Origin: Candidatus Thorarchaeota archaeon | Lineage (GTDB): Archaea > Asgardarchaeota > Thorarchaeia > Thorarchaeales > Thorarchaeaceae | Direction of reading: 5' to 3' | Length of the DNA stretch: 64,000 nt | NCBI GenBank assembly: GCA_019057475.1 | Contig: DXJO01000010.1 | Location: 32,001-96,000, forward strand | In this document: positions 1 to 36,485 of the stretch, piece by piece | Position numbering within the stretch: position 1 is the first letter of the stretch | How the letters are laid out: every line of letters starts with the position of its first letter | Translations under genes and position numbers: made by a program | The notes under the pieces: model-generated | Seen by the model: the letters and a program-made list of their open reading frames with translations, nothing else | The model's database searches: none | What the model was told of the DNA's origin: nothing

Positions 1-2195
1 ATGATCGGTTTCCTGCTGTCTTTCAGTACAGGTTCTACCTTGGCCTTGAGTTCCTTCAGTGTGGCTCCTTCATGGAGATAGGCTCTGACCACCGAGGAAA
101 GGTCTATCATCTGCACTCTCCTCCTGTAGAATCGTTTCACTGAAGCGCTGTGTCGGGAGAGTCTAAGGCGTTGCCGCGCAAGTACAGAATCTCCATATTC
201 ACCCGTAAGGTCGAACCAGATCACGTCTCTGGCTCGGTTTCGTGCAAGGCTGTGAATGTACTGTAGTCCGTGCCACCGTGAAGCAATGACTGAGGCAGAC
301 TGGGATGGTGACCCTCTTCCGCTCACCGAGAGGTAAAGGATGAACTCCTTCTCATCGTCCACGCGATTCTTGAACGGGTCAAATTGCTCCACATAATTAA
401 TCGGCCGTACTTCAGATGCTGAGATAGTGCTAGACAGAACTTTCAGGACCATTCTCAGAGGTCGACCGCTTTCACTAGGTCGGAGAACATCTCCCATGGT
501 AAGATCATTGTTCGAAGCTCTTTGATAGGCCTCAAGAATAAGGGGCGAAATTGCCTTCCTCATTTCTCCCCAGTCCTCCTTAGAGTCTACAACAATTACA
601 GCCTTGAGAAGGTCTGTTGGTGCTAGAGTGTCCTTCCGCATTACGCTGCTATACTCAGATAGAATGGCATCACTGTAGGCTTGAAGTTGTGCCCTGTTAG
701 CCTCTGAAACAGGACTCGCAATGACTCTGTCCCAGTTGTCCTCGGTCATCCTCCTTCGCTCAAGTACGAACTCATTGACGGTGTTCTCTTCGCTCTTGGA
801 TTTGGTCTCGACACCGTAGATATCGACATCGAATGAACTCCTAGTCTTCAAATCGACGACCATGCAGGGTTCGTATACAATTACGACAGGACTATTATCA
901 GCTCGGGAGAGAAACTTTCTTCGCATCAAAACTAGGTCTGCACGTCCTCTTCCACCAGCCACGTACAATTCTGAGGTCAGCAACATACCCGATGTATCAT
1001 ATGTCATCTCATCTCCGTGATAGACCACTGCACTGAGCTTGAACGGGCTTGGGAAGTACTTGGAAATGAAACGATGAAATCTGACACCGACTCGCCTGCT
1101 CTCCTCAGTGGCCTTCCTAAGCAGCTCTCTTGCATCATCCTCCGTGAGTTTTCCATTCATTATCAGACTCTTGACCTGCTCAATGGAGTCACCCCACTCG
1201 ATGATACCCTCCTTCTTGGAGCGCGCTATCATTCGATCGAAGAGGTTCTTGAGCTGGTCTTCAGCAGCAGTTTCAGATTCATCGACTAGAGCGCTGAATG
1301 AATAATGGAGATCATCCGATGGAACCCACTCTTCCGCGGCCTCCTCAATTTCTTCAGGCTCATCGAGAGAGATCTCATTCTTCGACGTATGCTTCTCCAA
1401 GGATTCCGCAATTTCAGAAGTTATGGACTGAGGCCGACCGTTTCTCGTTCCAAACTGAGCACGTATTCGGTCCACGACCGCTCTCAGTTCTTGAATCCCA
1501 CCTCGAATGAAGTTTGAACGACCAGTGTTTCTCTCAGTGTACACGTAGTCCATGAAGGGCAACAGCCTGTCGACGAGTTCATCAACGTACTTCATGGTCT
1601 TCCTCCGCGGGACACCGTATTTCAGACACTGTCTAACTAGTTCAACGAGATGAGAGCGAATCATGTCTCCAAAGTCCAGCTCAGGCAGATGATTATGTCT
1701 CAAAGGATAGATTGGTGTCTTTGCAGAACCCGGATAGCCAACTCCAAGTTTCCCATTGCCCAGGGTAATCACCCCCGGTCTAGGGAACTCGAAGCGTTCC
1801 TTCATGACATCTCTGATTCTACTCCCCGAATAGTCCCATAACTGGTTCAGGTACTCTTGGTTCCCCTCACTGCGTTTCGTACGCTTGGTTTCCCTGTTGC
1901 CGTACTTGACTGATGTCTTCAACATGATTCGGGAGAAGCTTCTTCGTATATCCTTCTCGACCTTGAGGAGCTTCCACGCATCAGGAGCACCATTCGTCAC
2001 CGTTTCTTTATACTCTTCTTTCGCTTCTCTCCAAATCTTTGCCATGCCTTTGATGCGATTACCCTGACCATGGTACAACGGATGTGCCTCCCCAGTGGCT
2101 CTGTCTTTGGCCAAGGCAAGAGTTGCTGACATTGCCATCTGAAAGGCTGTGGTAAGGACTTTTGCAGGATTCCGTGGATATGAAGGATTGCGCAT
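1..2195 (-). CDS. Large protein (>730 aa, 3' end beyond window) with central RecB/Cas4-like PD-(D/E)XK nuclease domain and downstream HerA-like motif region
   Basis: Manual translation from ATG at 2195 (MRNPSYPRNPAKVL...) is open to base 1; it is absent from the ORF track because no stop lies in the window. Motifs GVRFH, SELYVAGGRGRADLVL, VVDLKT, QLQAY; later VIWFDLTGEY. Confidence 0.8.
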   Translation of the reverse strand, partial: MRNPSYPRNPAKVLTTAFQMAMSATLALAKDRATGEAHPLYHGQGNRIKGMAKIWREAKEEYKETVTNGAPDAWKLLKVEKDIRRSFSRIMLKTSVKYGNRETKRTKRSEGNQEYLNQLWDYSGSRIRDVMKERFEFPRPGVITLGNGKLGVGYPGSAKTPIYPLRHNHLPELDFGDMIRSHLVELVRQCLKYGVPRRKTMKYVDELVDRLLPFMDYVYTERNTGRSNFIRGGIQELRAVVDRIRAQFGTRNGRPQSITSEIAESLEKHTSKNEISLDEPEEIEEAAEEWVPSDDLHYSFSALVDESETAAEDQLKNLFDRMIARSKKEGIIEWGDSIEQVKSLIMNGKLTEDDARELLRKATEESRRVGVRFHRFISKYFPSPFKLSAVVYHGDEMTYDTSGMLLTSELYVAGGRGRADLVLMRRKFLSRADNSPVVIVYEPCMVVDLKTRSSFDVDIYGVETKSKSEENTVNEFVLERRRMTEDNWDRVIASPVSEANRAQLQAYSDAILSEYSSVMRKDTLAPTDLLKAVIVVDSKEDWGEMRKAISPLILEAYQRASNNDLTMGDVLRPSESGRPLRMVLKVLSSTISASEVRPINYVEQFDPFKNRVDDEKEFILYLSVSGRGSPSQSASVIASRWHGLQYIHSLARNRARDVIWFDLTGEYGDSVLARQRLRLSRHSASVKRFYRRRVQMIDLSSVVRAYLHEGATLKELKAKVEPVLKDSRKPI

Positions 2196-2356
2196 TGAGA
2201 TGAATCATTGTACTAAATATATAAGAATTGTTACGGCTAAAGTGACCTATGCAATACTCAATTTAACCCAAACATTCAGAGGCTAAACGCGGTTTTGTTA
2301 ATATGACGGAAAGCAGTCTTAATAACCTTATATAGGTTCATTCTGTAAAAGAATAC

Positions 2357-2418
2357 GAGTTCAAAACCCCTGTTCAATACAGGGATGGGAGTGAACTCAA
2401 CTGACCGAAACAGGTCAG
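2357..2418 (+). promoter_or_regulatory. Structured 5' leader / possible element left end upstream of tnpB
   Basis: GAGTTCA(2357-63)/TGAACTC(2392-98) encloses CCCTGT/ACAGGG, followed by hairpin CTGACC-GAAACA-GGTCAG (2401-18). TATA-like TTATATA lies about 25 nt upstream (~2328-34). Confidence 0.5.
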
Positions 2419-2446
2419 AACTTTATATAGGAGAAGACGAAAGGCG

Positions 2447-4123
2447 ATGGCTCAGTCTAAAGGTGTCACAATCTCTGTCAAGGTACCCATCAAATGGGAT
2501 GCGATGACAGAGAGAACACAACAGCGGCTCAGGCAAATTGTGGGCCGGGACACCAGAGCAGTCCGTGCTTTCCTTGGTATTATTGAACAACACGAAGACA
2601 AATTGTTGACAGGTCGTAACAATGGTAGGATACGTGATGGTGAGCTCGACAAGCTCACGATGACCGCAATCAAGGTCAAAGCAGGATTCCTTCAGAGATT
2701 GACAGTCCCGCATGACCTCAAGGCTCAGTTTTCTAGAATGTCGCAGAACGAGCTGACAGAGTGTCGGCAGACTGCAGTTGCACTCTATGAGAGCTACCTC
2801 AAACTTCGCAGGAAGAAAGGAATGAAAGCCTCCCGTCCCTGCAAGATCAACTCGACTCAGAGGATTCCTAGGTGGGTGTTCAATCAGAGGTTCAAGCTCT
2901 TTGAGAAACGCACGACTGTTGCTAGATGGTGGTTGGACTTACGTGATTCTCTTGACTCTGTGCCGGAGGGAAGGAGAGTCCACGACAGGCTCTTGATCCC
3001 CCTGAAGATGTCACCCTTTCATCTCAACCAGATTGATAGAGGGGAAGTTAAGGCACTACAGGTTCTCATTGATCGAAATGGGAAGTGGTGGGTGACCTTT
3101 GCAGTTCGAGTTGACACACCAGAGCCACCAACTGACAGTCTACCTCTGGCTGTGCTTGGAATGGACCTTGGTATCGAAAAGTCTGCATGCACGACCCTTG
3201 TCACTCCCACGAAGGTCAGGGAGACCAGATACTTCGTTCAGAGGGACAAGGTGAAGGTGATCAAGAAGTATGACAGACAGGTGGCAGACCTTCAACATGA
3301 GATGGCATCGAGAAGAAATGACGGACTGCCTTACGACAAGGTTGCAGAGAAACTCAGAAGGCTCCGAACAAAGCGAGAGAACGTTGCACGAGAGTATGAC
3401 CGCGTTCTGGTACGACAGCTTGTGGACTACATCACCGAGCTCTCTGAGAGATACACCCTGTATGTTGCCATTGGTAGACTCAAGAACATCAGGGTCACTG
3501 CACGCAGAGGTAACTTCAGGGGTCGCAGGTTCAGGGGGATGATCCATTCCTGGGCTTTTGCGAGAATCACTGACAACCTCCAGCATGCATTGGCACAGCT
3601 CGGATGGTCTGTTAGTGGAAAGGATTCTCGTTTCCGAGTAGTTCCTGAGAACTGGACCTCTATCATGTGCTGGAAGTGCGGTCGCAAGGGAAGACGCCCC
3701 AGGCAGAACTACTTTGTGTGTCCAACCTGTGGAAACAGGTGCAACGCCGACAAGAACGGAGCCATCAACATCGCCGGACGCCTCATTACGCTCACGGGAT
3801 CACTTCATTCTGTGAGAGGACTAGGCAAGTGGGCTAATGCTGTTTCACGCAGCCAACGCTCACTCCCGAAAACCCGAGGGAAGGTCTCTTCTCAAGGGAG
3901 GTCCTTACTCTCCATGAAGAGTGGTGTATCGCACTCTGGAGAGTCCGCGGCTGTTCACCATGCTCAGACGAGTCTTCTCAGTTTCAGCGATGAATCTGGG
4001 ATGGGTGATAATGACCCCGCCGTGGTAGGAACTGTGAAGACCCTCTCTGTCGCCGGGAGTGATACCCCAGCATCAAGACAGGAGAAGGAAGCCAGGTCTG
4101 TAGGAGGGATACCATCCCGATGA
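2447..4123 (+). CDS. tnpB: TnpB/Cas12f-like RNA-guided nuclease with rearranged (Fanzor-type) RuvC site
   Basis: RuvC-I LGMDLG (D240); RuvC-II position AIGRL (G343 instead of E); alternative Glu in VPENWTS (E401); Zn finger CWKC...CPTC; RuvC-III NADKNGAINI (D435). Confidence 0.85.
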   Translation: MAQSKGVTISVKVPIKWDAMTERTQQRLRQIVGRDTRAVRAFLGIIEQHEDKLLTGRNNGRIRDGELDKLTMTAIKVKAGFLQRLTVPHDLKAQFSRMSQNELTECRQTAVALYESYLKLRRKKGMKASRPCKINSTQRIPRWVFNQRFKLFEKRTTVARWWLDLRDSLDSVPEGRRVHDRLLIPLKMSPFHLNQIDRGEVKALQVLIDRNGKWWVTFAVRVDTPEPPTDSLPLAVLGMDLGIEKSACTTLVTPTKVRETRYFVQRDKVKVIKKYDRQVADLQHEMASRRNDGLPYDKVAEKLRRLRTKRENVAREYDRVLVRQLVDYITELSERYTLYVAIGRLKNIRVTARRGNFRGRRFRGMIHSWAFARITDNLQHALAQLGWSVSGKDSRFRVVPENWTSIMCWKCGRKGRRPRQNYFVCPTCGNRCNADKNGAINIAGRLITLTGSLHSVRGLGKWANAVSRSQRSLPKTRGKVSSQGRSLLSMKSGVSHSGESAAVHHAQTSLLSFSDESGMGDNDPAVVGTVKTLSVAGSDTPASRQEKEARSVGGIPSR

Positions 4124-4250
4124 TGATAGACAAAGCCCCTGCTGACTCCAGACTCCGCCGGAGTGTGGAGGATGGCGACATCTGGCAGGGGAAGGGTGGA
4201 ACACAGGAGTCTCTTACAGTTGAGTGTCACTCACATGAAATGTAAGAAAC
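4100..4250 (+). ncRNA. Putative omegaRNA (TnpB guide scaffold) 3' portion / element right end
   Basis: AAGCCCCTGC...GCAGGGGAAG stem (4136-42/4185-91) with nested hairpin 4146-4170; possible pseudoknot AGACTCC(4150-56)/GGAGTCT(4206-12); further stem TCTTACA/TGTAAGA (4212-18/4241-47). Confidence 0.55.
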
Positions 4251-4324
4251 GGGTAATAATACAATGAGTGATATAATCGTGGGTCAATCTGTTCACCGAT
4301 TTGGCCAACGCAATGGTGTAGATA

Positions 4325-4897
4325 TTGGATAATCCGCAGATACGTGCTCTTCTTGAGATTAGAAAGGACTTGGAGGACCAACTGGAAGAGTTCAGAAGAA
4401 GAGTTGGAAAGATTGAGGAGATGATTGATGAGCTCGATTCAGTCATTGGCATGGGTAGCTTCTCCTCAGCCGACGCAGTTCTTGGAGAGAAAGACACCGC
4501 GGCCAAAGACGCGACCGAGGCTGCGGCTGATGACGTGCCTGAGGAGCCAAATACAATCGTAGTGTTGAACAAAGCTCGCGATCTCGAATTGGGTACGATG
4601 GAAATCATTGGTCCAGATGTTACGATTCTTCCGGCAGAGCACGCGCTGTACGATATCAAGCGGGGCGCCTTCGCTCGATTTTTTGTTGAGCGGATTCTGG
4701 GACAGTTTCAGAGAGAAGATAGACAGAAAGTCGAGAATGGCGAGCTCGAGTGGAGCGAGACATTTGAGTTCGAAGTTCACGCTGAGGATGGCATCCTTCT
4801 TCAGCTGGTCATAAAGAACTTCGGTTCAAGCAGTAGGCTTGAGGAGATACAGCGAACTCTTCGATGGGCTCTTGAGAAAACCTATCGTGCTAGATGA
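4325..4897 (+). CDS. Hypothetical protein with N-terminal coiled coil
   Basis: 190-aa ORF, heptad-like N terminus, protein-like composition. Confidence 0.7.
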   Translation: MDNPQIRALLEIRKDLEDQLEEFRRRVGKIEEMIDELDSVIGMGSFSSADAVLGEKDTAAKDATEAAADDVPEEPNTIVVLNKARDLELGTMEIIGPDVTILPAEHALYDIKRGAFARFFVERILGQFQREDRQKVENGELEWSETFEFEVHAEDGILLQLVIKNFGSSSRLEEIQRTLRWALEKTYRAR

Positions 4898-5004
4898 GGA
4901 TAAGGAAATCGCGCGAAAGCAACTCACCTCTGCTTCTTTAGCAAAAGAATATAACCCAACTCAATACTCATTTTCTCTACGGTCCAATTGAGCTTCTTCA
5001 CGGA

Positions 5005-5640
5005 GTGCACGAAACAGTGTCCCGCAGCGATGACGTAAGCCTCGTGGTCAATCCACAGATTGTTGTGAACCTTGTAATGGATGCACACGAATTCTTCTCA
5101 GAACACAAGGTTGACGAGCGATACGAATCAATGGCACTTGATCTTGTAAGGCGATATGTTTCCCAAGAGGGTATGCCGCGTGAGGTTGGTCCCTTCTTTG
5201 GGGCTGCTCTTTTCTTGGTGACACGTCATCCCTGGAGTCATCCCAACCCGCTGACTAAGACGGAGTTTTCAGCGAAGCTCCGGATGAAGGAGTCAAGCCT
5301 TGATTGGTACACTGAGAGCATAATCGAGAAGTTAGGTTTCGCCATTCTATACGACAAGAGTCAGCTTCCATTCTACGTCGATTCTCAGGGGACCATTGCA
5401 AGTGTCGTTAACTCTGTCGTAAGAACCACTGTGGGTGAGGAGGTCGTGCGCAGCATTGTTAGAGGCAGTGTTGTTTCTCCCAATGCGCTAGCTGAGCGAA
5501 TCGTTGACAGCCTCTGCAGTGTTGTGAAGATTATACCCGCCGCGTTCGAACAGGAATTACATAATCTTGTTCAACGGAAGATTGAGGATGAGAGCAAGCG
5601 ACTGCTCACCGAACTGGGCGGCCGATCAGCCAACACCTAG
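5005..5640 (+). CDS. Hypothetical protein with TFIIB/cyclin-repeat-like N-terminal half
   Basis: FFGAALFLVTR...PLTKTEFSAKLRMKESSLDWYTESIIEKL aligns by eye with the TFB repeat LAAAAIYVAS...RTQREIAEVARVTEVTVRNRYKEIVAKL in this window. Confidence 0.55.
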   Translation: MHETVSRSDDVSLVVNPQIVVNLVMDAHEFFSEHKVDERYESMALDLVRRYVSQEGMPREVGPFFGAALFLVTRHPWSHPNPLTKTEFSAKLRMKESSLDWYTESIIEKLGFAILYDKSQLPFYVDSQGTIASVVNSVVRTTVGEEVVRSIVRGSVVSPNALAERIVDSLCSVVKIIPAAFEQELHNLVQRKIEDESKRLLTELGGRSANT

Positions 5641-5939
5641 GTATTCTCTGGTTGCAGTGCCACTTCCTCAACAAACCGTTTGCCTGCCACTACTTGGTCG
5701 ATGGAGTGAATGACTGCACCTGCCTGCTCCAATATCTCCTTGATCACATCAAAACGGAGGTCGTCCCCCTCGATAGTGATTGCAATCGACTCGGTGCTCT
5801 GGTCAACTTCCTTCAACGATATATTCACACCCAAGACAGATTCGTCGCTAGCGACCATTATGGCCAAGTCTGTTAGTCTAGGTGTATGTGGTTTCAAAAC
5901 GTCAAGAACAATTCTTCTAATTCCAAATGCATGAGGCAA
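5637..5939 (-). CDS. DUF211 family protein
   Basis: IRRIVLDVLKPH...AVIHSIDQVVAG signature. Confidence 0.85.
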   Translation of the reverse strand: MPHAFGIRRIVLDVLKPHTPRLTDLAIMVASDESVLGVNISLKEVDQSTESIAITIEGDDLRFDVIKEILEQAGAVIHSIDQVVAGKRFVEEVALQPENT

Positions 5940-6181
5940 TTAGTTTTCTACCCCGCTAATGACCCTCGGGTCATGATTGTATGTCAAGCCGTTGCTAAGG
6001 AGTTGTTAAACCTTGCGAAGTCGGTCAATGTGTCATTTGTCTGAACACGTACATCGAGAAAAGCGCTAAATGGGGTTCGAGGGTGATGAACGCCCGAATG
6101 CTTATAATGCAGATGAGAGAATAAACATATGAGCCTCATCCAAGGCTTACGCCGGGAACCCTTTCAGGAAGGGACATTGAT

Positions 6182-27708: not shown

Positions 27709-29014
27709 TATCGAAAAACGGTTGACTGACCTTATACCTGAAAACATGGCCCGTCGCGGCCGCATCACGATTGACGCATTATTGGCTCCAGTGAAGGACA
27801 TTCTAAACAGACAGAGATTCCCTGACAGGCCTCTCACGGAACGTCAGGTGGAGCTGATGTTTACACTCCTCTCTTCAATGGATACCGATAAGGATCCCGC
27901 AGCTGCCCGGGTTGGCGAAAGAGAAGGTCGAACTATCTCGCCTCTTCTTGATCGTCTATCTGCTGGTTTCAACCACGGAATTGGCCGAAGCGGCCACCTC
28001 ATGGCGCCGCAACCAAAGGCTGCAGGTGCCTCTCTGATGCAGCAGGTGACAAATCATGTTGCCCTTGATGCTATTCGACGGTTAGGCCTTGAGAACGTCC
28101 GGGCAGGATTAGTTACCCCCTTGTCAACTGGAATGAGCATTGCTCTGATACTTGGCGCATTGCGTCGCACCTTGGGCATCAAAGAAGTTCTCTATCCGCG
28201 TATTGATCATGCATCTCCTCGTCGGGCGATTTCATTCGCTGGTCTTCAGGAAATTCGCGTTTCCACGATTCTTGAAGGAGATGCAGTGCGGGTTGATCTT
28301 GCAGAGCTTGAAAGCCGTCTGTCAAAGAGAAATGAAGCAGCTGTACTTGCCACAACCACGTTCTTTCCCCCTCGCGAGTCGGACCCGGTGAAAGATATCG
28401 CCAAGCTGTGCGCTGAGAGTGGTGCTCCCTTAGTAATCAATAACGCCTATGGGGTTCAATCGGAAGCCATCATGCATAGTATTCGATCTGCAATAGATGC
28501 GGGACGAGTTGATGCAGTGGTTCAGAGCAGCGACAAGAATTTTCTCACTCCTGTCGGAGGATCCATTATTGTTTCACCAGACAAGGAGATTATCGATAGT
28601 ACTGCTGAAACATATGCAGGCAGAGCCACTGCAGCGCCGGTTGTTCAGACCCTTGCAGCATTGTTACTGACTGGCCACGAGGAGTATACACGACTTCAAG
28701 CTGAGCAGATTGAAAACCTCACTTACTTGAGGGAACAACTGAGCTCCGTTGCTGACTCAATAGGACAAAGACTGTTGGAGGTCGAGAACCACGTGGCATG
28801 TGCTATGACTCTGAATGGTCTGAATGCAAGAGAGATAGGTGCTCGGCTCTACAACTTGAGAGTGACAGGGCCGCGCGTTGTGGAAAAGGGAGAAGAGGGG
28901 TCTTCCGTTGATAACTATCCCCACGACTACATCGTGATGAACGCAGCGATAGGAGCGAAGAGAGAACATATAGAGCAAGCTGCAGTGAAGCTTCATAAGG
29001 CGGCCAGTAAGTAG
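27698..29014 (+). CDS. spcS: O-phosphoseryl-tRNA(Sec) selenium transferase (SepSecS)
   Basis: GEREGR, HGIGRSG...QPKAAG, NNAYG, PLP-Lys motif QSSDKNF. TTG 27698 is preceded by GAGGAGGT. Confidence 0.95.
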   Translation: MDNDIEKRLTDLIPENMARRGRITIDALLAPVKDILNRQRFPDRPLTERQVELMFTLLSSMDTDKDPAAARVGEREGRTISPLLDRLSAGFNHGIGRSGHLMAPQPKAAGASLMQQVTNHVALDAIRRLGLENVRAGLVTPLSTGMSIALILGALRRTLGIKEVLYPRIDHASPRRAISFAGLQEIRVSTILEGDAVRVDLAELESRLSKRNEAAVLATTTFFPPRESDPVKDIAKLCAESGAPLVINNAYGVQSEAIMHSIRSAIDAGRVDAVVQSSDKNFLTPVGGSIIVSPDKEIIDSTAETYAGRATAAPVVQTLAALLLTGHEEYTRLQAEQIENLTYLREQLSSVADSIGQRLLEVENHVACAMTLNGLNAREIGARLYNLRVTGPRVVEKGEEGSSVDNYPHDYIVMNAAIGAKREHIEQAAVKLHKAASK

Positions 29015-29044
29015 TCCAGACAGCTTGAACGGAGGGCCAAAAGC

Positions 29045-29695
29045 TTGAATGAGCTTGAAGGCAATGTGAAGGTTTCACGCACACACGAATACGAGAAGAC
29101 TGACCCGGTCACAGTTTTCAAACTTGCATGGTATGCAATAGCATCAAAGCCAGGTGTCTTGCTGGCTGATCACAGCGAGGCCGAGAGTCAATCATTCAAA
29201 GGTGAAGCAATGTTCACCGCGAAGATTGACCAGAAGCCCATCAAAATAAAGGTCGATGTCGACGAGGAACAAGGTTCTGTTGAGATGACTGGATGGGGCG
29301 AAGATGAAGTTGCCCTCGGCACCTATCTGGATGGTGCAATGGATGCCCTGAAAAAGTCCAGCGACAAGTATCTCAGTCTTGCAGATGAAGAAAAACAAAA
29401 GATCCGAAGAGCACTCATTGCAAAGACGTGCTGGGATCGGATTATCCACAAGATACTCAACAAGGCTCCACTCAGCGACATCTATTTCCAGCTGGCACAT
29501 GGCAGAGAGATGATGATCAAGGCGACTGAAGGTGATGAACTCAACCCAATCACACTCACCACGAGTGGATGGTTATCACGGATAGAGCCACTGCCTAAGG
29601 ACGAGGCACCTCCTGCGGGTCTTGCTACGGAACTGGCAAAGAAATGCATCGAGTGGAAGAGGGGCACACAGGAAGTCATTCAGAACTTTCTCTAA
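29045..29695 (+). CDS. Hypothetical protein directly downstream of SepSecS
   Basis: 216-aa ORF 30 nt after the SepSecS stop, with GGAGG RBS. Confidence 0.75.
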   Translation: MNELEGNVKVSRTHEYEKTDPVTVFKLAWYAIASKPGVLLADHSEAESQSFKGEAMFTAKIDQKPIKIKVDVDEEQGSVEMTGWGEDEVALGTYLDGAMDALKKSSDKYLSLADEEKQKIRRALIAKTCWDRIIHKILNKAPLSDIYFQLAHGREMMIKATEGDELNPITLTTSGWLSRIEPLPKDEAPPAGLATELAKKCIEWKRGTQEVIQNFL

Positions 29696-29862
29696 ATGCA
29701 GTGTCGATTACGTACGTCGGATTGATTTTAACATACACAATGCATTATCAACTGCAGTAACAACATCCGCACTCTACGCAATCATTCGATGTAGACTCAA
29801 AGTGAAATTGGCATTAGTCCCGAAAGGTTTCAGTGATATGGGCCTTCGTGAAGAACGCGGGC

Positions 29863-30246
29863 CTAGCTGTGCTTCTTATGTAACGTGATAGATCCCCCTG
29901 CGTGGGGGAATGCTTCAACCTCAATAAGGAATGGGTTCCGCGATTCACCGACCTTTGTCCACATGACCTGATCGCGACGATAGTATCTGTAATCTGCGCC
30001 ATTATGTCGAATCTCAATCATTGATGTGGGAGGAAGATCGCTAAGGGATGCAATCTCCAACTTTTCTCCGGCTCTGGTCTGCTTGGGCTGAGAAAGGAAG
30101 ACTGGAAAGATTTCATCATTGATAGGTACAAGCAATGCCACATGCGGACGGTCTACGCAGTCCCAGAGTTTCGGAACTGGGGGTGTCCTGCACGAGAATG
30201 CTCCATATGATGAGCTTAGAGCTTGGAAGATACCTGCATCAATCAC
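29863..30246 (-). CDS. Hypothetical protein
   Basis: 127-aa ORF with GTG start; AT-rich promoter-like tract at 30300-30345. Confidence 0.5.
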   Translation of the reverse strand: MIDAGIFQALSSSYGAFSCRTPPVPKLWDCVDRPHVALLVPINDEIFPVFLSQPKQTRAGEKLEIASLSDLPPTSMIEIRHNGADYRYYRRDQVMWTKVGESRNPFLIEVEAFPHAGGSITLHKKHS

Positions 30247-30503
30247 GTGACTCTGGTCTCCATCGAGTTCCTTGCATGACCCATTCCTAGAGTAAGGAAT
30301 TACTGTGATATATTAATAATAGATAGCATATAACTATTTATAGTAATTGGTTTGTCATCTCCACGCAATGGCACACACCTTGGATGCCCATGAACTCCCT
30401 TTCCCCGCACGATATCTCTGAGAAATAAGAACCAGGCACATACAACTTCGCATCACAGTATGCTACCCTCAGATTTAAGTCGCAATCACGATATTCTGCA
30501 TTT

Positions 30504-30594
30504 GGCCCCCTACAGAGCTGGTGGTCTGGTTCCGTGGGCTTCAAACCCATGATCGTGCAAGCGATAAGAGTTCGATTCTCTTAGGAGGCCGCCA
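30504..30594 (+). tRNA. selC: tRNA-Sec (anticodon UCA)
   Basis: 9-bp acceptor GGCCCCCTA/TAGGAGGCC; 7-bp D stem with 4-nt loop; 6-bp anticodon stem with loop CT-TCA-AA (TCA at 30541-43); long variable arm ATCGT-GCAA-GCGAT; 4-bp T stem AGAG-TTCGATT-CTCT; G discriminator and encoded CCA. TTTAAG box ~25 nt upstream. Confidence 0.96.
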
Positions 30595-30622
30595 TAGCCG
30601 TTTTCCACAAATCTCTCTCTTC

Positions 30623-31387
30623 TCATAGCAGAGCTTGCAGTTCCTTCAGAATAACATCTCTCGCCATCTTGGGACTAATCTTATCGTAGGCTGCACGTTT
30701 GAGAACTCTTAGTCGGATGATGGATACTTCTCGGTTTCCACGTAACTCGGGGTGATTCTGAAGAAATCCTGATACCGTGTTTCTAGTGGCAAGGTCCAGC
30801 TTTTCGAATTCATTATCACCTGCAAGAGTTGACTTCGGTTGCCTGATGACTTCGAGTGAGCGAATGGTATTCACAATTTCGCTGACAGTAGAATCAAGAT
30901 CAGGAGTGGACATATCCACTTCAGCAAGGGGGCAATCCCACAGGTATCGAGCCCCGGGTCTGTCGAATCTTTCACTGATTCGTTGGATGACATGATCCGG
31001 AATCCTTGTGCCGGGTCTCTCTCTATTCCACTTGAGTGCCTCTTCAAGGGGCGTTGTCACATGGATTATCCCAAATGCACACTTCGCGTCAATAGCGATC
31101 TCTAGAAGCTCATGCCGCATGCTATTGTAGTAATTTGTATCGTCGTGAATCACACTCTTTCCTTTGCTAACGAGCGTTTCCACTCTTGCTAATGCAGCCT
31201 GACGTACCTCACCCTCCTTCTCCGGCACGAAATCTGAGTAGTAGGTATCATCTCGCCATTCATCAGTTCTGACAACCTCAACTTCAGGCCCTTTCGAATG
31301 AACTGCTAATCTAATTGCATCTGCCAGAGATGATTTTCCAGATGCTGGTAGCCCACAAAGGGCTAGTATGAACTGATTCATTGGCAA
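30623..31387 (-). CDS. pstK: L-seryl-tRNA(Sec) kinase
   Basis: LCGLPASGKS Walker A, DDTNYYNSMR, FDRPGARYLWD; convergent with tRNA-Sec. Confidence 0.9.
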   Translation of the reverse strand: MPMNQFILALCGLPASGKSSLADAIRLAVHSKGPEVEVVRTDEWRDDTYYSDFVPEKEGEVRQAALARVETLVSKGKSVIHDDTNYYNSMRHELLEIAIDAKCAFGIIHVTTPLEEALKWNRERPGTRIPDHVIQRISERFDRPGARYLWDCPLAEVDMSTPDLDSTVSEIVNTIRSLEVIRQPKSTLAGDNEFEKLDLATRNTVSGFLQNHPELRGNREVSIIRLRVLKRAAYDKISPKMARDVILKELQALL

Positions 31388-31468
31388 TCTGCCACGTCAA
31401 GAAATCGCTTTCAAATGAACTTAGCGAAATACAAAGAAATGAAGAGTGATTGGGGAATTTCCCAACCA

Positions 31469-32410
31469 CTATGGTTTGATTGTGATTTGGAGGTTAATAG
31501 CGAGATCCTTGTAGCGGTTTCTCACCGTGACTTCTGTCACGTTGGATGCCTCTGCAATCTCACGCTGCGTGCGTCTGTCATTCTCGATGATACCAGCAAT
31601 GTACAACGCTGCAGCCGCCAGACCACCCGGATCCTTGCCTGCGGTGAGGCCTCTAGCCCTCGCATTGTTGATTATACCTATTGCAGTCTGGACTGTCTTG
31701 CCCTCCAATGCTAGGTCTGAGGATATTCTAGGCATTAGGTCGTTTGCAGATGCTAGGGGAACCTTCAATTTGACGTTGCGTAGGATAAGCCTTACGCACT
31801 GGCCAAGCTCCTTCCTGTTGATTCTCGCCTCAGTCACTACCTCATCCAACTGGCGCGGAATCTTGTGAATTCTGCACGAGAGGTAAATCGATGCCGCAAC
31901 CATTCCCTCAATGCTCCTACCTCTGACCAACCGTGTGTTCAGGGCTTTCCGGTAAACGAGGGCCGCTGTTTCCTTGGTTTCATGAGGAACGCCCAGTTGG
32001 GATGTAAGGCGATCCATCTCACTCATTGCGATGCTGAGATTCCTGTGTTGAGAGCTGTGCACCATGGTCCGAATTTGCCACTTGCGCATTCGATAGATTG
32101 CTGCACGCTGGCTAGCTGCAATTGAGCGTCCGCTGGCATCTCTATCGCTCCAACCAATGGTCGTTGCAAGACCCTTGTCTGCCATCGTTAGTGTCATTGG
32201 TGAACCTGTTCTGGCTCGAGCATTTCTCTCTTCAGCAGTGAATGCTCTCCATTCGGGACCAGTATCTACATGCCTATCACTGATCACACACCCGCACGAC
32301 GTGCAGGTTTTCTCACCCCGGCTGCTGTCTTGGTAAAACTCGTTGCCACCACAGATGGTGCAAACTCTCATACCTGTTTTTCTATCTATAGCACGGACTG
32401 GTTTCGCCAT
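31469..32410 (-). CDS. tfb: Transcription initiation factor IIB (paralog 2)
   Basis: CTIC...CTSC, GPEWRAF, TEVTVRNRYK. Confidence 0.96.
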   Translation of the reverse strand: MAKPVRAIDRKTGMRVCTICGGNEFYQDSSRGEKTCTSCGCVISDRHVDTGPEWRAFTAEERNARARTGSPMTLTMADKGLATTIGWSDRDASGRSIAASQRAAIYRMRKWQIRTMVHSSQHRNLSIAMSEMDRLTSQLGVPHETKETAALVYRKALNTRLVRGRSIEGMVAASIYLSCRIHKIPRQLDEVVTEARINRKELGQCVRLILRNVKLKVPLASANDLMPRISSDLALEGKTVQTAIGIINNARARGLTAGKDPGGLAAAALYIAGIIENDRRTQREIAEASNVTEVTVRNRYKDLAINLQITIKP

Positions 32411-32727
32411 GTATGTTCACCTATTCGTCTTCCTCTCTGGATGTGGTCCCACAAAAGGGCCTACAATCAGCGATTAAAACTGCACTCCGAGAAGAAGCGC
32501 CTCGCGAATCGCAGGACTTTCTGTATATAAGTGTAAGCATCGGTCCTCTGATGTACTAGCCTTGTCGCTTATTCTTTCAGAGAAAAACACTATATCCTCA
32601 CTATATACAAGGATTTGACACAAAATGCACCTATGCTCCGGGATTAGAACACCAACGTGGGAGTCCTGAACACGACCCCGATGGACGGAACCGACCCGTT
32701 CTTATTCGGGTAGAGGTTTGTACTACC

Positions 32728-33612
32728 ATGCCAAAGGCGAAGGTCAATAACACAGAGATTGAGTATGAAACAATCGGGGACCCCATCTCGAAACCGCTGC
32801 TATTGATAGCGGGACTGGGAAGTCAGATGCTTGCTTGGTCGGATGAGTTGTGCGAAAGTCTTGCAAATCGCGGTTTCTTTGTCATCAGATTCGACAACCG
32901 AGATGTGGGCTTGTCAACGAAATTTGAAGATGCAGGTTTGCCGGATTTTGTGAAGATTAATGATGCCTATGCTCGTGGAGAAAAACCCGATGTACCATAC
33001 ACTTTAGAGGACATGGCCGGTGATGCCGTTGGTGTCTTGGATGCTCTGAATATAGATAAGGCACACGTCTGCGGTGCTTCCATGGGTGGAATGATCGCAC
33101 AGGTTCTAGCATATAGACATCCATCTCGGGTGCAATCTCTCACGTTAATCATGAGCACGACTGGAAATCCCGACCTACCACAAGGGAAGCCAGAAATCAT
33201 GGCGCAATTCTTTGCACCCGTTCCTTCCGAACGCGAGGCATTTATTGAAGAAACGGTCCGGCGAGGTCGTCTCATACACGGCACTTTTGCTTATGATGAG
33301 GATCAATCAAAAGAGTATAGAGCAAAAGAGTACGACCGCAGTTATTATCCCGAAGGGACAATACGCCAATTAGCAGCAATGGCTGTTCCCGGTAATCTGA
33401 AACCCGAACTTGCTGCAATACGAGCGCCTACGCTTGTTATCCATGGGAGGGAAGATCCATTTTACCCTGTTGAAGCAGGTAACGACATCGCAACAGCGAT
33501 ACCCGGAGCGGAATTATTGATTTTGGATGGAATGGGACATAGTTTTCCTCATGAAGTCATGCCACGTATTGTAACCGCACTAGTTGAGAATAGCAACAAG
33601 AATGGCAATTAG
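32728..33612 (+). CDS. Alpha/beta hydrolase
   Basis: RFDNRDVGLS, GASMGG nucleophile, HGREDP, GMGH. Confidence 0.92.
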   Translation: MPKAKVNNTEIEYETIGDPISKPLLLIAGLGSQMLAWSDELCESLANRGFFVIRFDNRDVGLSTKFEDAGLPDFVKINDAYARGEKPDVPYTLEDMAGDAVGVLDALNIDKAHVCGASMGGMIAQVLAYRHPSRVQSLTLIMSTTGNPDLPQGKPEIMAQFFAPVPSEREAFIEETVRRGRLIHGTFAYDEDQSKEYRAKEYDRSYYPEGTIRQLAAMAVPGNLKPELAAIRAPTLVIHGREDPFYPVEAGNDIATAIPGAELLILDGMGHSFPHEVMPRIVTALVENSNKNGN

Positions 33613-33772
33613 AAAGTACACTAATCATATACAAAGAGTTAGTCAAACTATAACAAACCTACAGACTTTCAATCTGTAATCTGTGCTCATTTCAGGTGAT
33701 AATAGCGTAGTTCAATAGATATTAAGTAAAACAGCCTTGCAAACCTACCCAAACCAACTGGGAGGTCTTTGG

Positions 33773-34678
33773 ATGAATACACGCTCTGATTCCAGTCGAT
33801 TCAGTATCATTACCAATCCGACCGATGATGAGGTGAAAGAATTCCAGAAAGGATTAGACGCCTATAATATGGGACGGACTAATGGAGAGTTCAATAGTCC
33901 TAAAGACTGGATTAGTCTAGTTCTCAAAGACGATGAGGGTAATATCGTAGGAGGGATTACGACTAGTACGATATTCTGGGCCCAGTATCTTGAGGTTCTC
34001 TGGGTAAATGATAAATATCGAGGACTTGGTTATGGAAGAGACCTCGTTCTTGAAGCAGAGAGATTAGCGAAGAAAAACGGATGCATAACCTCACACACGT
34101 ATACGTTTTCGTGGCAAGCACCTGATTTCTATCAAGCAGTTGGGTACAAGCTCATAGCTACCTATGAAGGATACATCGATGGCATTACAGAACTTATCCT
34201 TATGAAACGACTAGATACGATTGATAATGTATCAACCCAGAAGGTAGATTCCACTCGATTTGCTATCTCTGAAGATTCGACTGAGGAATCACTGAGCATT
34301 GTCCGCAAAGGGCTCGGAAGTAATTTTGACCAGCACGTTAGTGATTCGCTTAAGGAACATCCCCAAATCAGATACAAATTGGTCATTAAGAACGATGATG
34401 AGCAAGTGATTGGAGGACTGTGTGGTTATACTATCCTTGGGACCATGAATATAGAAGGACTCTGGGTTGATGAGAGATATCGTGGTCAAGGTTATGGAAC
34501 GGATCTCTTAATGCATGCAGAAAAACTTGCTAAAGAGAAAGGTTGTATTGCGGGCCAGATAGCGTGCTTTTCATTTCAGGAACTTGATTTCTTGAAGAAA
34601 CATGGATACAATACACACGGAGTTTCAGATGGGTATCCAGATGAAGTTAAGGAGTACTATCTCATCAAGAAGTTTTAG
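33773..34678 (+). CDS. Tandem GNAT acetyltransferase
   Basis: Two repeats LWVN/DxxYRGxGYG; GGAGG RBS precedes ATG 33773. Confidence 0.9.
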   Translation: MNTRSDSSRFSIITNPTDDEVKEFQKGLDAYNMGRTNGEFNSPKDWISLVLKDDEGNIVGGITTSTIFWAQYLEVLWVNDKYRGLGYGRDLVLEAERLAKKNGCITSHTYTFSWQAPDFYQAVGYKLIATYEGYIDGITELILMKRLDTIDNVSTQKVDSTRFAISEDSTEESLSIVRKGLGSNFDQHVSDSLKEHPQIRYKLVIKNDDEQVIGGLCGYTILGTMNIEGLWVDERYRGQGYGTDLLMHAEKLAKEKGCIAGQIACFSFQELDFLKKHGYNTHGVSDGYPDEVKEYYLIKKF

Positions 34679-34749
34679 AGAAGGCTAGGTGGACATCCAC
34701 AGAGAACTTCGCGAGTGCCCACCTGTTGTCAAATGTTTAGTTTGCTTGA

Positions 34750-35331
34750 CTAAGCTAGGCAAGCAATTTCAGTCACGACAGCTTCTGGTATGATGTGGAT
34801 GTTTCCGTAGTATGTGTGGTTGGTTTCAGAAACCTCTGTCTTGGCACGTGCGATTTTAATGAGGCCATTGCTCTTTCCTAGCAGGTAGCCAGCTATATAC
34901 TGCAATGGCACTTGCTGCTTGTTGGCTTCTTCCTTGCTCATTGAGCAACACTCGACACCTGGACTCATGAAGGTCACCTCAACCATCTCATGCTCACCGC
35001 AGTTGTCCACGCGGTTGAGATGCTTGGTTCTCTCCTTGATCTGGTTCTTCCCTTGAATTCTGTGTACTTCATTCGCAGCGTAATGGAAAGGCTCACCCTT
35101 GAGTCTATGGATTGACGGCACAACATACATGGTTGTATCATTCAATGCTTCCACACTATCATCACCACTATCCACGTAGGTCTTGTCCGAACTCTCGCCG
35201 ACCAAGTACCGCACATGGTAGTGCTTGGCATCTACATTCTTGAACTCGTCAGCCTTGTCATCCTTGATGCTAACGGATGTGTTTGCCCATAGTTCGACGG
35301 GCACAAATGGGTTTACTGTATTGTCTTTCAT
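34750..35331 (-). CDS. Hypothetical protein
   Basis: 193-aa ORF with GGTGA RBS. Confidence 0.7.
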   Translation of the reverse strand: MKDNTVNPFVPVELWANTSVSIKDDKADEFKNVDAKHYHVRYLVGESSDKTYVDSGDDSVEALNDTTMYVVPSIHRLKGEPFHYAANEVHRIQGKNQIKERTKHLNRVDNCGEHEMVEVTFMSPGVECCSMSKEEANKQQVPLQYIAGYLLGKSNGLIKIARAKTEVSETNHTYYGNIHIIPEAVVTEIACLA

Positions 35332-35430
35332 TGATAATCACCGCTTAACGATGGTTAATACTGCATGTACTTAACGATGGTTATTTATAAGCTTTACGTT
35401 ATAAACGCAACAGCACAAGTGGTGACGTCT

Positions 35431-36024
35431 ATGTTCGAGCATCTAGCTATTGTTGCATCTGTCACAATCTTTGGCATTCAGCACAGCGGCATCTCGGCTC
35501 TCCGAGTGAAGCACTGGATCATTGACAGATGGGGGCAGAAAGGTTACTCTAGGATTTTCAATGTCACCTCCGTTCTAGCTCTAATCCCGGCTTCCTTGTC
35601 TCTCAACTACTGGGACTGGCTCTACTTTCTTCAATCTCCTGAACTAGTCAATCCTCTTCTCTTCCTTTCAGGAGTAATTCTTCTGGCGCTTGGCGTTGTG
35701 GTTGCCATATTGGCATCAAGGTCAATCTCAGTGAGCACAGTTGCAGATATGCGAACTGACCGCAAGCCAGCTCTTGTGACCGGCGGACTCTATGCTCGAA
35801 CGAGACATCCCCTCTACCTCGCGACTATCTTGTTCTTGTTGTCATTAGTCGCTTTCTACCCGTTCTCCAACATACTAACGTTCTCATTGGCTTTCGTTGT
35901 CTATGTAGTCATAGGTGGATATCTCGAAGAGCGCAAGCTTGTTATTCAATATGGGACAGAGTATCTTACCTACCGTAAGACGACTGGTTTCCTATTGCCA
36001 CGACTAAGTTCTCGGAATGACTGA
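35431..36024 (+). CDS. ICMT/NnrU-like membrane methyltransferase
   Basis: HSG...LVTGGLYARTRHPLY...EERKL...YG.EY..YR. Confidence 0.82.
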   Translation: MFEHLAIVASVTIFGIQHSGISALRVKHWIIDRWGQKGYSRIFNVTSVLALIPASLSLNYWDWLYFLQSPELVNPLLFLSGVILLALGVVVAILASRSISVSTVADMRTDRKPALVTGGLYARTRHPLYLATILFLLSLVAFYPFSNILTFSLAFVVYVVIGGYLEERKLVIQYGTEYLTYRKTTGFLLPRLSSRND

Positions 36025-36038
36025 ACCGGTAATCGTGG

Positions 36039-36485
36039 TCATTTGAGCATTGATTCCAGCTTAGAAAGATGTCTGGCTCTCTTAACTGCCTTGGGTGAAA
36101 CTTGGTGCACCTTACCCTTTTCAACAACGAAATGGGCCGTTTCGATGTCCGGCGTAAAGTGACTCTTCAAGTCCTCTACGACGAAATGAAGCTGTACGCA
36201 ATGTGGGCTGCCATCCACAGTCAAGACTGTGACCTTATTCATTTTTGAGTATCTGATGATTGAGCCTATTTTGAAGCCCGCGTGGTTAACGTGCATCTCT
36301 TCCAAGCAAACGTGCAAGACTGCCTGACCCCCATCCTTCTCTCTGTACTCCTCAACTATACTTGGGAATCGACTATTCATGCAGCTGCCAACCAACAATA
36401 GCTGCCCTTTTTCTCTCAGCCTTCGATCGCCCACGTTTATGCTCATTAGGTTCTCATCGCAGTGGCATCCGCACAAGCCTACCAT
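36039..36485 (-). CDS. Cys-rich Fe-S-associated protein
   Basis: LLLVGSC, VCLE, LTVDGSPHCVQLH. Confidence 0.7.
   Translation of the reverse strand: MVGLCGCHCDENLMSINVGDRRLREKGQLLLVGSCMNSRFPSIVEEYREKDGGQAVLHVCLEEMHVNHAGFKIGSIIRYSKMNKVTVLTVDGSPHCVQLHFVVEDLKSHFTPDIETAHFVVEKGKVHQVSPKAVKRARHLSKLESMLK

Follow-up and report, generated by a model that had tools for sequence, protein, structure and literature searches.

Background

Altae-Tran et al. (2023) described a diverged Cas1 (aCas1) encoded next to TnpB in Asgard archaea. It was proposed to act as a transposase, and the available text of that paper also reports flanking repeats and, downstream of tnpB, a variable segment preceding GTTCACTCA that was suggested as a possible guide (PMC10691335). 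In the long-form tracrRNA autorepression of Cas9, as in scaRNA and creA, a repeat-like RNA located outside its usual context carries a short guide matching a promoter and converts an active effector into a repressor of its own genes or of genes nearby (PMC8730458). TldRs have lost nuclease activity and act on host genes (PMC10705468), and in IS605 the protein Arc represses the tnpB promoter (10.64898/2026.09.24.754181).

A mobile element of two genes

The window (the whole 64,000-nt stretch of a Thorarchaeota contig that was analysed) opens with a divergent gene pair separated by 251 bp (2196-2446), as an earlier, sequence-only reading had noted. The large open reading frame of more than 730 aa in that reading is real and runs off the window, and at the places of the TATA-like boxes noted on both strands, A/T boxes are conserved across 45 loci.

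1..2195, minus strand: 5' part of the aCas1-nuclease-RecA-fold fusion gene (1806 aa in full; AlphaFold models), which continues to contig position 28775 (window position -3225)
About 2213..2225, minus strand: TATA-like box of the large gene, some 25 nt upstream of the start codon
About 2328-2336: TATA-like box of tnpB
2447..4123, plus strand: tnpB (558 aa; Pfam Cas12f1-like_TNB, E 2.6e-11)
Contig position 28631 (window position -3369): left end of the element
4246..4257, plus strand: right end of the element; a flank-derived guide would begin at 4258

The element spans 7,627 bp, holds only these two genes and has imperfect inverted terminal repeats of about 8 bp. A TnpB lies head-to-head beside the aCas1 fusion in all 61 informative loci, that is, those with room for it. 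The two genes therefore form a unit and not the chance insertion of a solo tnpB; the sequence-only reading had kept the chance insertion of a non-autonomous element as its main alternative. The pair occurs at unrelated sites, in multiple copies and with defined ends. The genome of the window (G000) carries five gene pairs, 15 copies of the right-end motif and many miniature derivatives that retain both ends and the omega RNA; solo tnpB copies exist as well. Full elements with 88-90% identity are present at other sites, with the corresponding empty alleles found in G000, while the window site is empty in genome G082 and in family genomes (a congener and other Thorarchaeota). At the right junction the window lacks 28-29 bp of the target that the G082 empty allele contains. 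One copy of the element interrupts a nitroreductase gene. The distribution is patchy (49 of 87 genomes), the Cas1 domain being found in 36 of the 59 sampled genomes of the element's own family and in 2 others of the phylum sample; homologue records are named Thorarchaeota. As shown by these comparisons between genomes, the element is mobile, has fixed ends and gives rise to miniature copies. The locus matches the published Asgard aCas1-TnpB loci (PMC10691335), and the best overall explanation of the window pair is likely an autonomous 7.6-kb transposon of that kind.

The TnpB had been called Fanzor-type, a label supported only by its rearranged active site. The RuvC-II region has a rearrangement (D240, G343 where the glutamate would be, the alternative E401, and D435) that is identical in 44 of 44 relatives, and the protein is predicted to be an active nuclease. 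Since a moved RuvC-II glutamate has been described for several TnpB branches, the G343/E401 change is not diagnostic for Fanzor. The best PDB matches are prokaryotic TnpB and Cas12f proteins, with the mimivirus L79 protein reaching only E 0.43.

Guide-like RNAs of tnpB

Structured RNA at both ends of tnpB, suspected from the sequence alone, was borne out by folding (leader z -4.5, 0 of 200 shuffles; 3' region z -2.3, with compensatory changes at 17 of 30 pairs). Rfam gave no match within window positions 1-6000.

2319..2323, plus strand: inferred TAM, TTAAT
2324..2336, plus strand: self-target in the tnpB promoter (BRE/TATA region), where the leader guide matches 12 of 13 positions
2354..2436, plus strand: conserved structured leader, a crRNA-like unit of hairpin, pairing arm, scaffold-end copy and short guide
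2389-2403, plus strand: leader pairing arm, complementary to the 3' arm
2407-2418, plus strand: copy of the scaffold end
2419-2431, plus strand: short leader guide
3806..4257, plus strand: omega RNA region at the right end (about 450 nt), retained by the miniature elements
4217..4232, plus strand: 3' pairing arm, complementary to leader positions 2389-2403 over 15 bp, with one bulge

Roughly the last 105 codons of tnpB overlap the omega RNA. The leader is predicted to pair with this right-end RNA across 1.8 kb, and the pairing covaries, with a compensatory change in the duplex core at one locus (C54). Across loci the duplex reaches -21.2 kcal/mol, against -18.7 ± 0.35 when partners are permuted; relatedness inflates this result, because the cognate partner has only a weak advantage when set against that of the nearest relative (better in 41 cases, worse in 27). 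The 3' arm belongs to the published motif of a hypervariable region plus GTTCACTCA (PMC10691335). In the consensus of 35 loci the variable segment, downstream of tnpB, follows a conserved T and precedes GTTCACTCA, and the window carries a one-base variant. A fixed internal guide after GTTCACTC was dropped as a candidate, since this stretch base-pairs locally and its only matches are to the ends of the element itself.

In 49 of 49 loci the leader ends in 12-15 nt that match the locus's own TATA box after a TTAAT-like motif, which would imply autorepression by a split guide. The match averages 13.14 of 14 positions, against 9.62 ± 0.15 for permuted pairs, stops after nucleotide 13-15, and is best for the cognate promoter in 47 of 49 loci. 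In the window's genome, 2324..2336 is the only TAM-flanked match to the leader guide; on the aCas1 promoter strand no match rose above background. Mismatches at guide positions 1-12 are wobble-compatible in 5 of 8 cases, against one opposite transition. It thus seems that TnpB has an additional short guide directed at the promoter of its own gene, and there is a good probability that the leader is crRNA-like, pairs with a tracrRNA-like right-end RNA and directs TnpB to its own BRE/TATA box through the 12-15-nt guide.

The flanking motif has T at -4 in 49 of 49 loci, A at -2 in 48 and T at -1 in 49. The TAM inferred from it comes from promoter sequence and may be partly BRE.

It is improbable, if not negligibly so, that the leader 13-mer is instead a second promoter, or a site for protein binding, that arose by duplication, and the complementarity between leader and 3' region a DNA inverted repeat. 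Such a reading gains from the guide copy, which forms a TATA-like box of its own 16-28 nt upstream of the ATG, from the near-palindromic core motif and from the scarcity of G-U pairs in the duplex (36 of 574). Against it, the variable positions remain matched within each individual locus over a TnpB identity range of 43-90%, and the match starts exactly after the scaffold-end copy on one side and after the fixed TAM-like motif on the other. Moreover, recurrent single-base bulges suit RNA, and the same self-match, with a different TAM, recurs in the unrelated long TnpB type.

The large fusion protein

Three domains of the large protein have coding sequence in the window.

1491..2195, minus strand: Cas1 catalytic helical domain, residues 1-235, from structure matches and conserved residues
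516..1148, minus strand: PD-(D/E)XK nuclease domain of the RecB/Cas4 motif type, from its motif and invariant columns
1..362, minus strand: start of the RecA/KaiC-fold domain (residues 612-890), from fold matches

Pfam, PADLOC and PDB sequence searches with the large protein gave nothing useful, and residues 1-270 had no usable match in the Atlas. With VIA-align the first domain matches Cas1 structures (Z 12.2 for 8flj, 11.8 for 4n06, 11.4 for 4w8k, 10.8 for 7kft, 10.3 for 6qxf) and the casposase 6opm (10.1), at rmsd 3.8-4.6 over 168-189 aligned residues, a Z of 10-12 being moderate for a helical domain. E80, H167 and R180 are invariant among 64 sequences, conservation of D174 and D177 is 90% or higher, and one family member matches Pfam Cas_Cas1 (E 4e-4). 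The N-terminal, dimerising beta domain of normal Cas1 is missing. The description of the pair as transposase-less is not borne out, because residues 1-235 form a Cas1 integrase-type domain, and the giant protein is quite probably the element's transposase.

The nuclease motif comprises H374, E409, D420, K450 and Q503-xxx-Y507; Atlas feature matches for this domain all fall in the PD-(D/E)XK clan (0.88-0.89) and serve as a lead only. For the third domain the sequence-only reading had proposed a HerA-like protein, which was not confirmed. The matches listed are RecA/KaiC/Rad51 paralogues and DnaB. HerA appears in no fold list, although a HerA fold could still be missing from such lists. None of the homologues in the displayed alignment has the Walker A lysine, so the domain is probably not an active ATPase. 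The C-terminal half has a confident fold (pLDDT 82.7) with no fold match above Z 6.2, which is not evidence for a new fold.

Insertion and proposed mechanism

The preferred insertion motif is TCNNGA, which differs from the inferred TAM. Outcomes are irregular: duplications of 5-6 bp or 11-13 bp, deletions of 1-40 bp and one inversion, with 5-6-bp duplications or deletions in the window element's subfamily. This variation between junctions led to the rejection of a target duplication of fixed length; some variable junctions may reflect later events or cross-species indels. The cutting of empty alleles by flank guides, as in IS605, found little support, the inferred TAM being present at only 2 of 18 right-junction sites in a hand-compiled list.

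According to the model we propose, the Cas1 domain would join the 3'-OH of each element end to target DNA, preferring TCNNGA. Loose coupling of the two joining steps would produce short duplications, deletions or inversions, and the fused nuclease or host repair may finish the joining. TnpB would play an accessory part as an RNA-guided nuclease that carries the right-end RNA, to which the 5' leader of the tnpB transcript would be the crRNA-like partner of a tracrRNA-like molecule. The 12-15-nt guide would bring TnpB to its own BRE/TATA box, where the match is probably long enough for binding and blocking initiation and too short for cutting, resulting in negative feedback. An RNA-guided function beyond cutting, as suggested by the earlier reading, thus finds support as autoregulation and not as defence. 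In the literature searched, coverage of which was incomplete, we found no report of pairing between leader and right-end RNA, of a self-aimed TnpB guide or TnpB autoregulation, or of a TCNNGA preference with irregular junctions.

One may speculate further that the element is a proto-CRISPR within a single transposon, with a split tracr/cr-like RNA and guides acting in trans. The Cas1-plus-Cas4-like fusion would renew the TnpB guide by rejoining the right end to new DNA, a step to which frequent adjacent deletions might correspond, and leaders and miniature elements would supply interchangeable guides in trans, possibly steering integration. We consider this unlikely.

It is unlikely that the giant protein merely travels with the element as cargo or has an accessory role, movement being provided in trans by an IS607-type serine recombinase or another transposase. 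Five long-TnpB elements do contain a serine recombinase, among them one of the window's own genome (C53), and the solo tnpB and miniature copies would fit movement in trans. However, none of the 36 complete short-type loci has such a gene, and the catalytic-type residues of the Cas1 domain show little or no variation. Y1 and IS607 enzymes are not known to make target duplications, and even C53 shows one of 11-13 bp when compared with five empty genomes. The reported absence of Y1 and serine enzymes holds to this extent: the 96%-complete genome has no Y1, and no serine recombinase lies in or beside the window element.

A CAST-like transposon, in which TnpB guides the Cas1 fusion to insertion sites, would account for the strict pairing, the tRNA-like right flanks of some elements and the position of others beside tRNA genes. 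This is very unlikely given the rarity of the TAM at right junctions, the many unrelated sites that have a short motif in common, the intact RuvC site, and the at least six switches of TnpB type on the aCas1 tree, which argue against a co-evolved interface. A co-opted defence or DNA end-processing module, as first proposed, is highly improbable: conserved adjacency, two intact nucleases and the patchy distribution speak for it, but the checks of empty sites and copy number revealed a mobile, multi-copy element with clean ends, miniature derivatives and an interrupted host gene, and the large protein has no PADLOC match, while its fold matches are to RecA/KaiC and it has no Walker A lysine.

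Cas1 and Cas12 are generally traced back to transposons of two separate kinds. In the present case one actively moving element of Asgard archaea would combine an integrase of the Cas1 type with an ancestor of Cas12. The proposal of an aCas1 transposase can be put to a direct test, since the ends and the target motif are defined, as are empty sites and candidate catalytic residues. If our model is true, neither the tracr/cr split nor autoregulation needs CRISPR arrays to arise, and a TAM and a scaffold design are predicted for this TnpB clade.

Comparison with known systems

No CRISPR array was found between tnpB and the next gene, and no canonical Cas1 in the window's genome. The most similar published loci are those of Cas1H-Asgard-1/2 (PMC10691335), which have the Asgard host, the diverged Cas1 beside TnpB with its proposed transposase role, flanking repeats and the variable segment before GTTCACTCA in common with ours. 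Here, by contrast, the variable segment is predicted to pair with the 5' leader, and the putative self-aimed guide is a distinct sequence on the upstream side of tnpB; in the available text of that paper, the ends, target rule and empty sites given here were not found.

As in casposons, there is a Cas1-fold integrase (catalytic domain only), target duplications occur and some insertions lie near tRNA genes. Unlike casposons, the element has no family B polymerase within its 7,627 bp, no long terminal inverted repeats and no fixed long duplication, its junctions being variable; its Cas1 is truncated and fused into an 1800-aa protein, and it carries TnpB. The right-end RNA overlapping the 3' coding region and the non-autonomous derivatives recall the TnpBs of IS200/IS605 and IS607 (OMEGA), from which the RNA differs in being about 450 nt long and apparently in two pieces. 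Unlike IS200/IS605, there is no Y1 (HUH) transposase, and insertion is not TAM-adjacent without duplication; unlike IS607, with its serine recombinase TnpA, GG core and lack of duplications, none of the 36 complete short-type loci has such a recombinase and duplications are present. The absent Walker A lysine separates the large protein from HerA-NurA and nuclease-HerA defence.

With regard to regulation, Cas9 long-form tracrRNA, scaRNA and creA belong to CRISPR-Cas systems of bacteria and haloarchaea (PMC8730458), whereas here a transposon TnpB with no neighbouring array would be repressed. The locus resembles TldRs in the putative RNA-guided repression by a TnpB relative and differs in its RuvC D-E-D, intact in 44 of 44, and in targeting its own promoter. 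As with Arc, the tnpB promoter would be repressed, here by an RNA-guided mechanism rather than by a protein repressor.

A mobile gene pair

Two divergent genes make up the locus:

from 2195 beyond the window's edge, minus strand: large gene, 1806 aa in the whole contig
2447-4123, plus strand: tnpB, with a match to Cas12f1-like_TNB

The sequence-only reading had proposed a divergent pair across a 251-bp gap, with a large ORF of more than 730 aa. Both hold: 251 bp separate the minus-strand start at 2195 from the tnpB start at 2447, and the ORF reaches 1806 aa once the whole contig is read. The conserved adjacency that it proposed to look for was found as well, as a divergent tnpB lies beside the large gene in all 61 loci with room upstream among 70 from GTDB genomes. 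On the aCas1 tree the TnpB type switches at least six times. The TnpB partner is always present yet exchangeable, an argument against an RNA-guided integration complex whose parts co-evolved. One subfamily (L051, L052, L054, L055) has an extra ORF of 225-260 aa, with no assigned function, upstream of the large gene, where it separates the promoter region from the aCas1 fusion.

The gene pair is a mobile element, and genome comparison establishes its mobility, ends and gene pairing. The large gene occurs in five copies in the window's own genome (G000), each with a divergent tnpB; its protein is found in 49 of the 87 genomes of the class, often in many copies, and is rare in other Asgard lineages. 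Short derivatives of ∼0.6-0.8 kb retain the element's left tip together with its final 450 bp. The window covers 32001-96000 of contig C42, and its element spans 28631-36257 of that contig (7,627 bp). Elements 88-90% identical to it occupy other sites in other samples, one within a nitroreductase gene. Empty alleles were found for both: G000 carries those of the relatives' sites, and the window's site is empty in G082 and family genomes, the ferredoxin gene there abutting the next ORF.

The element is inserted just upstream of the promoter of a single-copy 190-aa gene (window:4325-4897). This gene has no Pfam family and is conserved in Asgard archaea, being present in 25 of the 31 genomes searched. 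Four species carry the left 150 bp of the element at 98-99% identity, with flanks only ∼90% identical (L001:11600-11780 versus G084, G085, G086); these species share junction-adjacent bases unlike the empty allele, possibly through recent spread with co-conversion. Miniature elements on G086 C130 (L114) and G000 C34 have a left and a right flank of different genomic origin, reflecting either rearrangement between copies or misassembly.

Domains of the two proteins

Sequence libraries gave no match for the 1806-aa protein. Residues 1-975 were modelled with AlphaFold (pLDDT 81). In this model residues 1-235 align with the helical catalytic domain found in Cas1s and casposase (Z 10-12) and residues 612-890 with RecA/KaiC/Rad51-type folds; the C-terminal 900 residues, well folded in the model, gave no clear fold match. 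Fold and motif conservation are both established. Among 64 sequences (25-77% identity), E80, H167 and R180 never vary and D174 and D177 seldom do, which is the pattern of the Cas1 metal site; the Cas1 N-terminal beta domain is missing. Since a Cas1 catalytic domain with invariant residues is present, the claim of a transposase-less locus does not hold. Invariant PD-(D/E)XK and QxxxY motifs in residues 350-560 suggest, as motifs, a RecB/Cas4-type domain. The HerA-like label also fits less well, and the ATPase-like part, whose P-loop is without its lysine, would on the model be better called an inactive RecA fold.

The TnpB active site, with D240 and D435, a RuvC-II glycine and E401 as the alternative residue, is kept in 44 of 44 relatives. 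The "Fanzor-type" label holds for this rearranged site, but the rearrangement has been described for several prokaryotic TnpB branches and so does not by itself make this protein a Fanzor.

Irregular junctions

In a hand-compiled and then tallied junction list, a TCNNGA-like hexamer precedes the left junction, exactly so in 11 of 17 (background 0.6% per base). Five insertions have a 5-6-bp target duplication; others keep both element tips intact with 1 to 40 bp of target missing (28-29 bp at the window's copy). One relative of the long type, which carries the unrelated 720-aa TnpB, has 11-13 bp of target duplicated, and in another a 33-bp piece of target is inverted. Target duplication speaks against a Y1 or IS607 mechanism. 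No Y1 transposase was found in G000, and serine recombinases occur only in five long-type loci, with none in 36 complete loci of the short type (TnpBs like the window's 558-aa protein); the reported lack of an adjacent Y1 or serine transposase stands for the window's element. Strand transfer is probably of the Cas1 type, with the two ends coupled loosely; some irregular junctions may be later adjacent deletions or cross-species indels.

Several single insertions deserve mention. A long-TnpB aCas1 element on G000 C53 (L147:683-9290) contains an IS607-like serine recombinase ORF and nonetheless has 11-13 bp of target duplicated, as comparison with five genomes whose site is empty shows. The 33-bp inverted target piece lies at the right junction of a solo 712-aa TnpB element (G000 C42, ∼185.6-188 kb; L151:1592-3955). 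A solo short-type tnpB adjoins tRNA-Val on G000 C54 (L144:2750-5200); three congeners have, in their empty alleles, an intron that this tRNA lacks, and the tRNA's 5' part is apparently duplicated. One long-type subfamily sits ∼40-50 bp beyond the tRNA-Lys 3' end (L148:9900-10030; L046, L048, L103), with a right flank resembling the tRNA's 5' arm.

A probable split RNA and self-aimed guide

The right-end region, which holds the predicted omega RNA, is structured, and 17 of its 30 predicted pairs covary through compensatory changes. It shares with the aCas1-TnpB loci described by Altae-Tran et al. a variable segment and a GTTCACTCA motif, suggested there as a possible guide (PMC10691335). The leader, a conserved segment 5' of tnpB, is kept in 45 loci (folding z -4.5), and its arm at 2389-2403 is complementary to 4217-4232. 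Cognate leader:right-end duplexes average -21.2 kcal/mol versus -18.7 ± 0.35 when permuted, an advantage that is weak when compared with nearest relatives; at one locus the otherwise fixed pairing core has a compensatory change.

On the 3' side of its pairing arm, the leader carries a copy of the right end's terminal motif. The 12-15 nt that follow match the BRE/TATA region of tnpB's own promoter, where TT(A/C)AT immediately precedes the matched stretch, in all 49 loci of the set (one additional locus could not be anchored). The guide-promoter match is 13.14 of 14 versus 9.62 ± 0.15 when permuted, with the cognate best in 47 and background level beyond position 15. In the whole genome the window's guide matches exactly one site that has the inferred TAM beside it, namely its own promoter. 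In 13 of 18 loci the long type shows the same self-match, here after TTG(A/G/T)T; the remaining five appear mis-anchored by the search pattern.

Flank-guided TnpB usually serves to cut empty sites. The TAM inferred from the promoter precedes the flank-derived guide in only 2 of 18 empty alleles, so this role is not supported here, unless the promoter makes the TAM look longer than it really is. In one miniature element (L137 on G000 C21, and G000 C34:13533 by minus-strand count) the flank guide, with ATCAT before it, matches its own inferred empty site and also a second similar genomic site.

Comparison with known systems

The locus type has already been published as Cas1H-Asgard, and aCas1 is proposed as a transposase in that paper's treatment of it (PMC10691335), a role it would also have in our model. 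Among the papers searched, none dealt with the target rule, with the irregular junctions, or with a split RNA or a guide aimed at its own gene. The leader would be a crRNA-like unit borrowing the right-end RNA as scaffold, and its short guide may repress instead of cutting, for which the Cas9 long tracrRNA, scaRNA and creA offer analogues.
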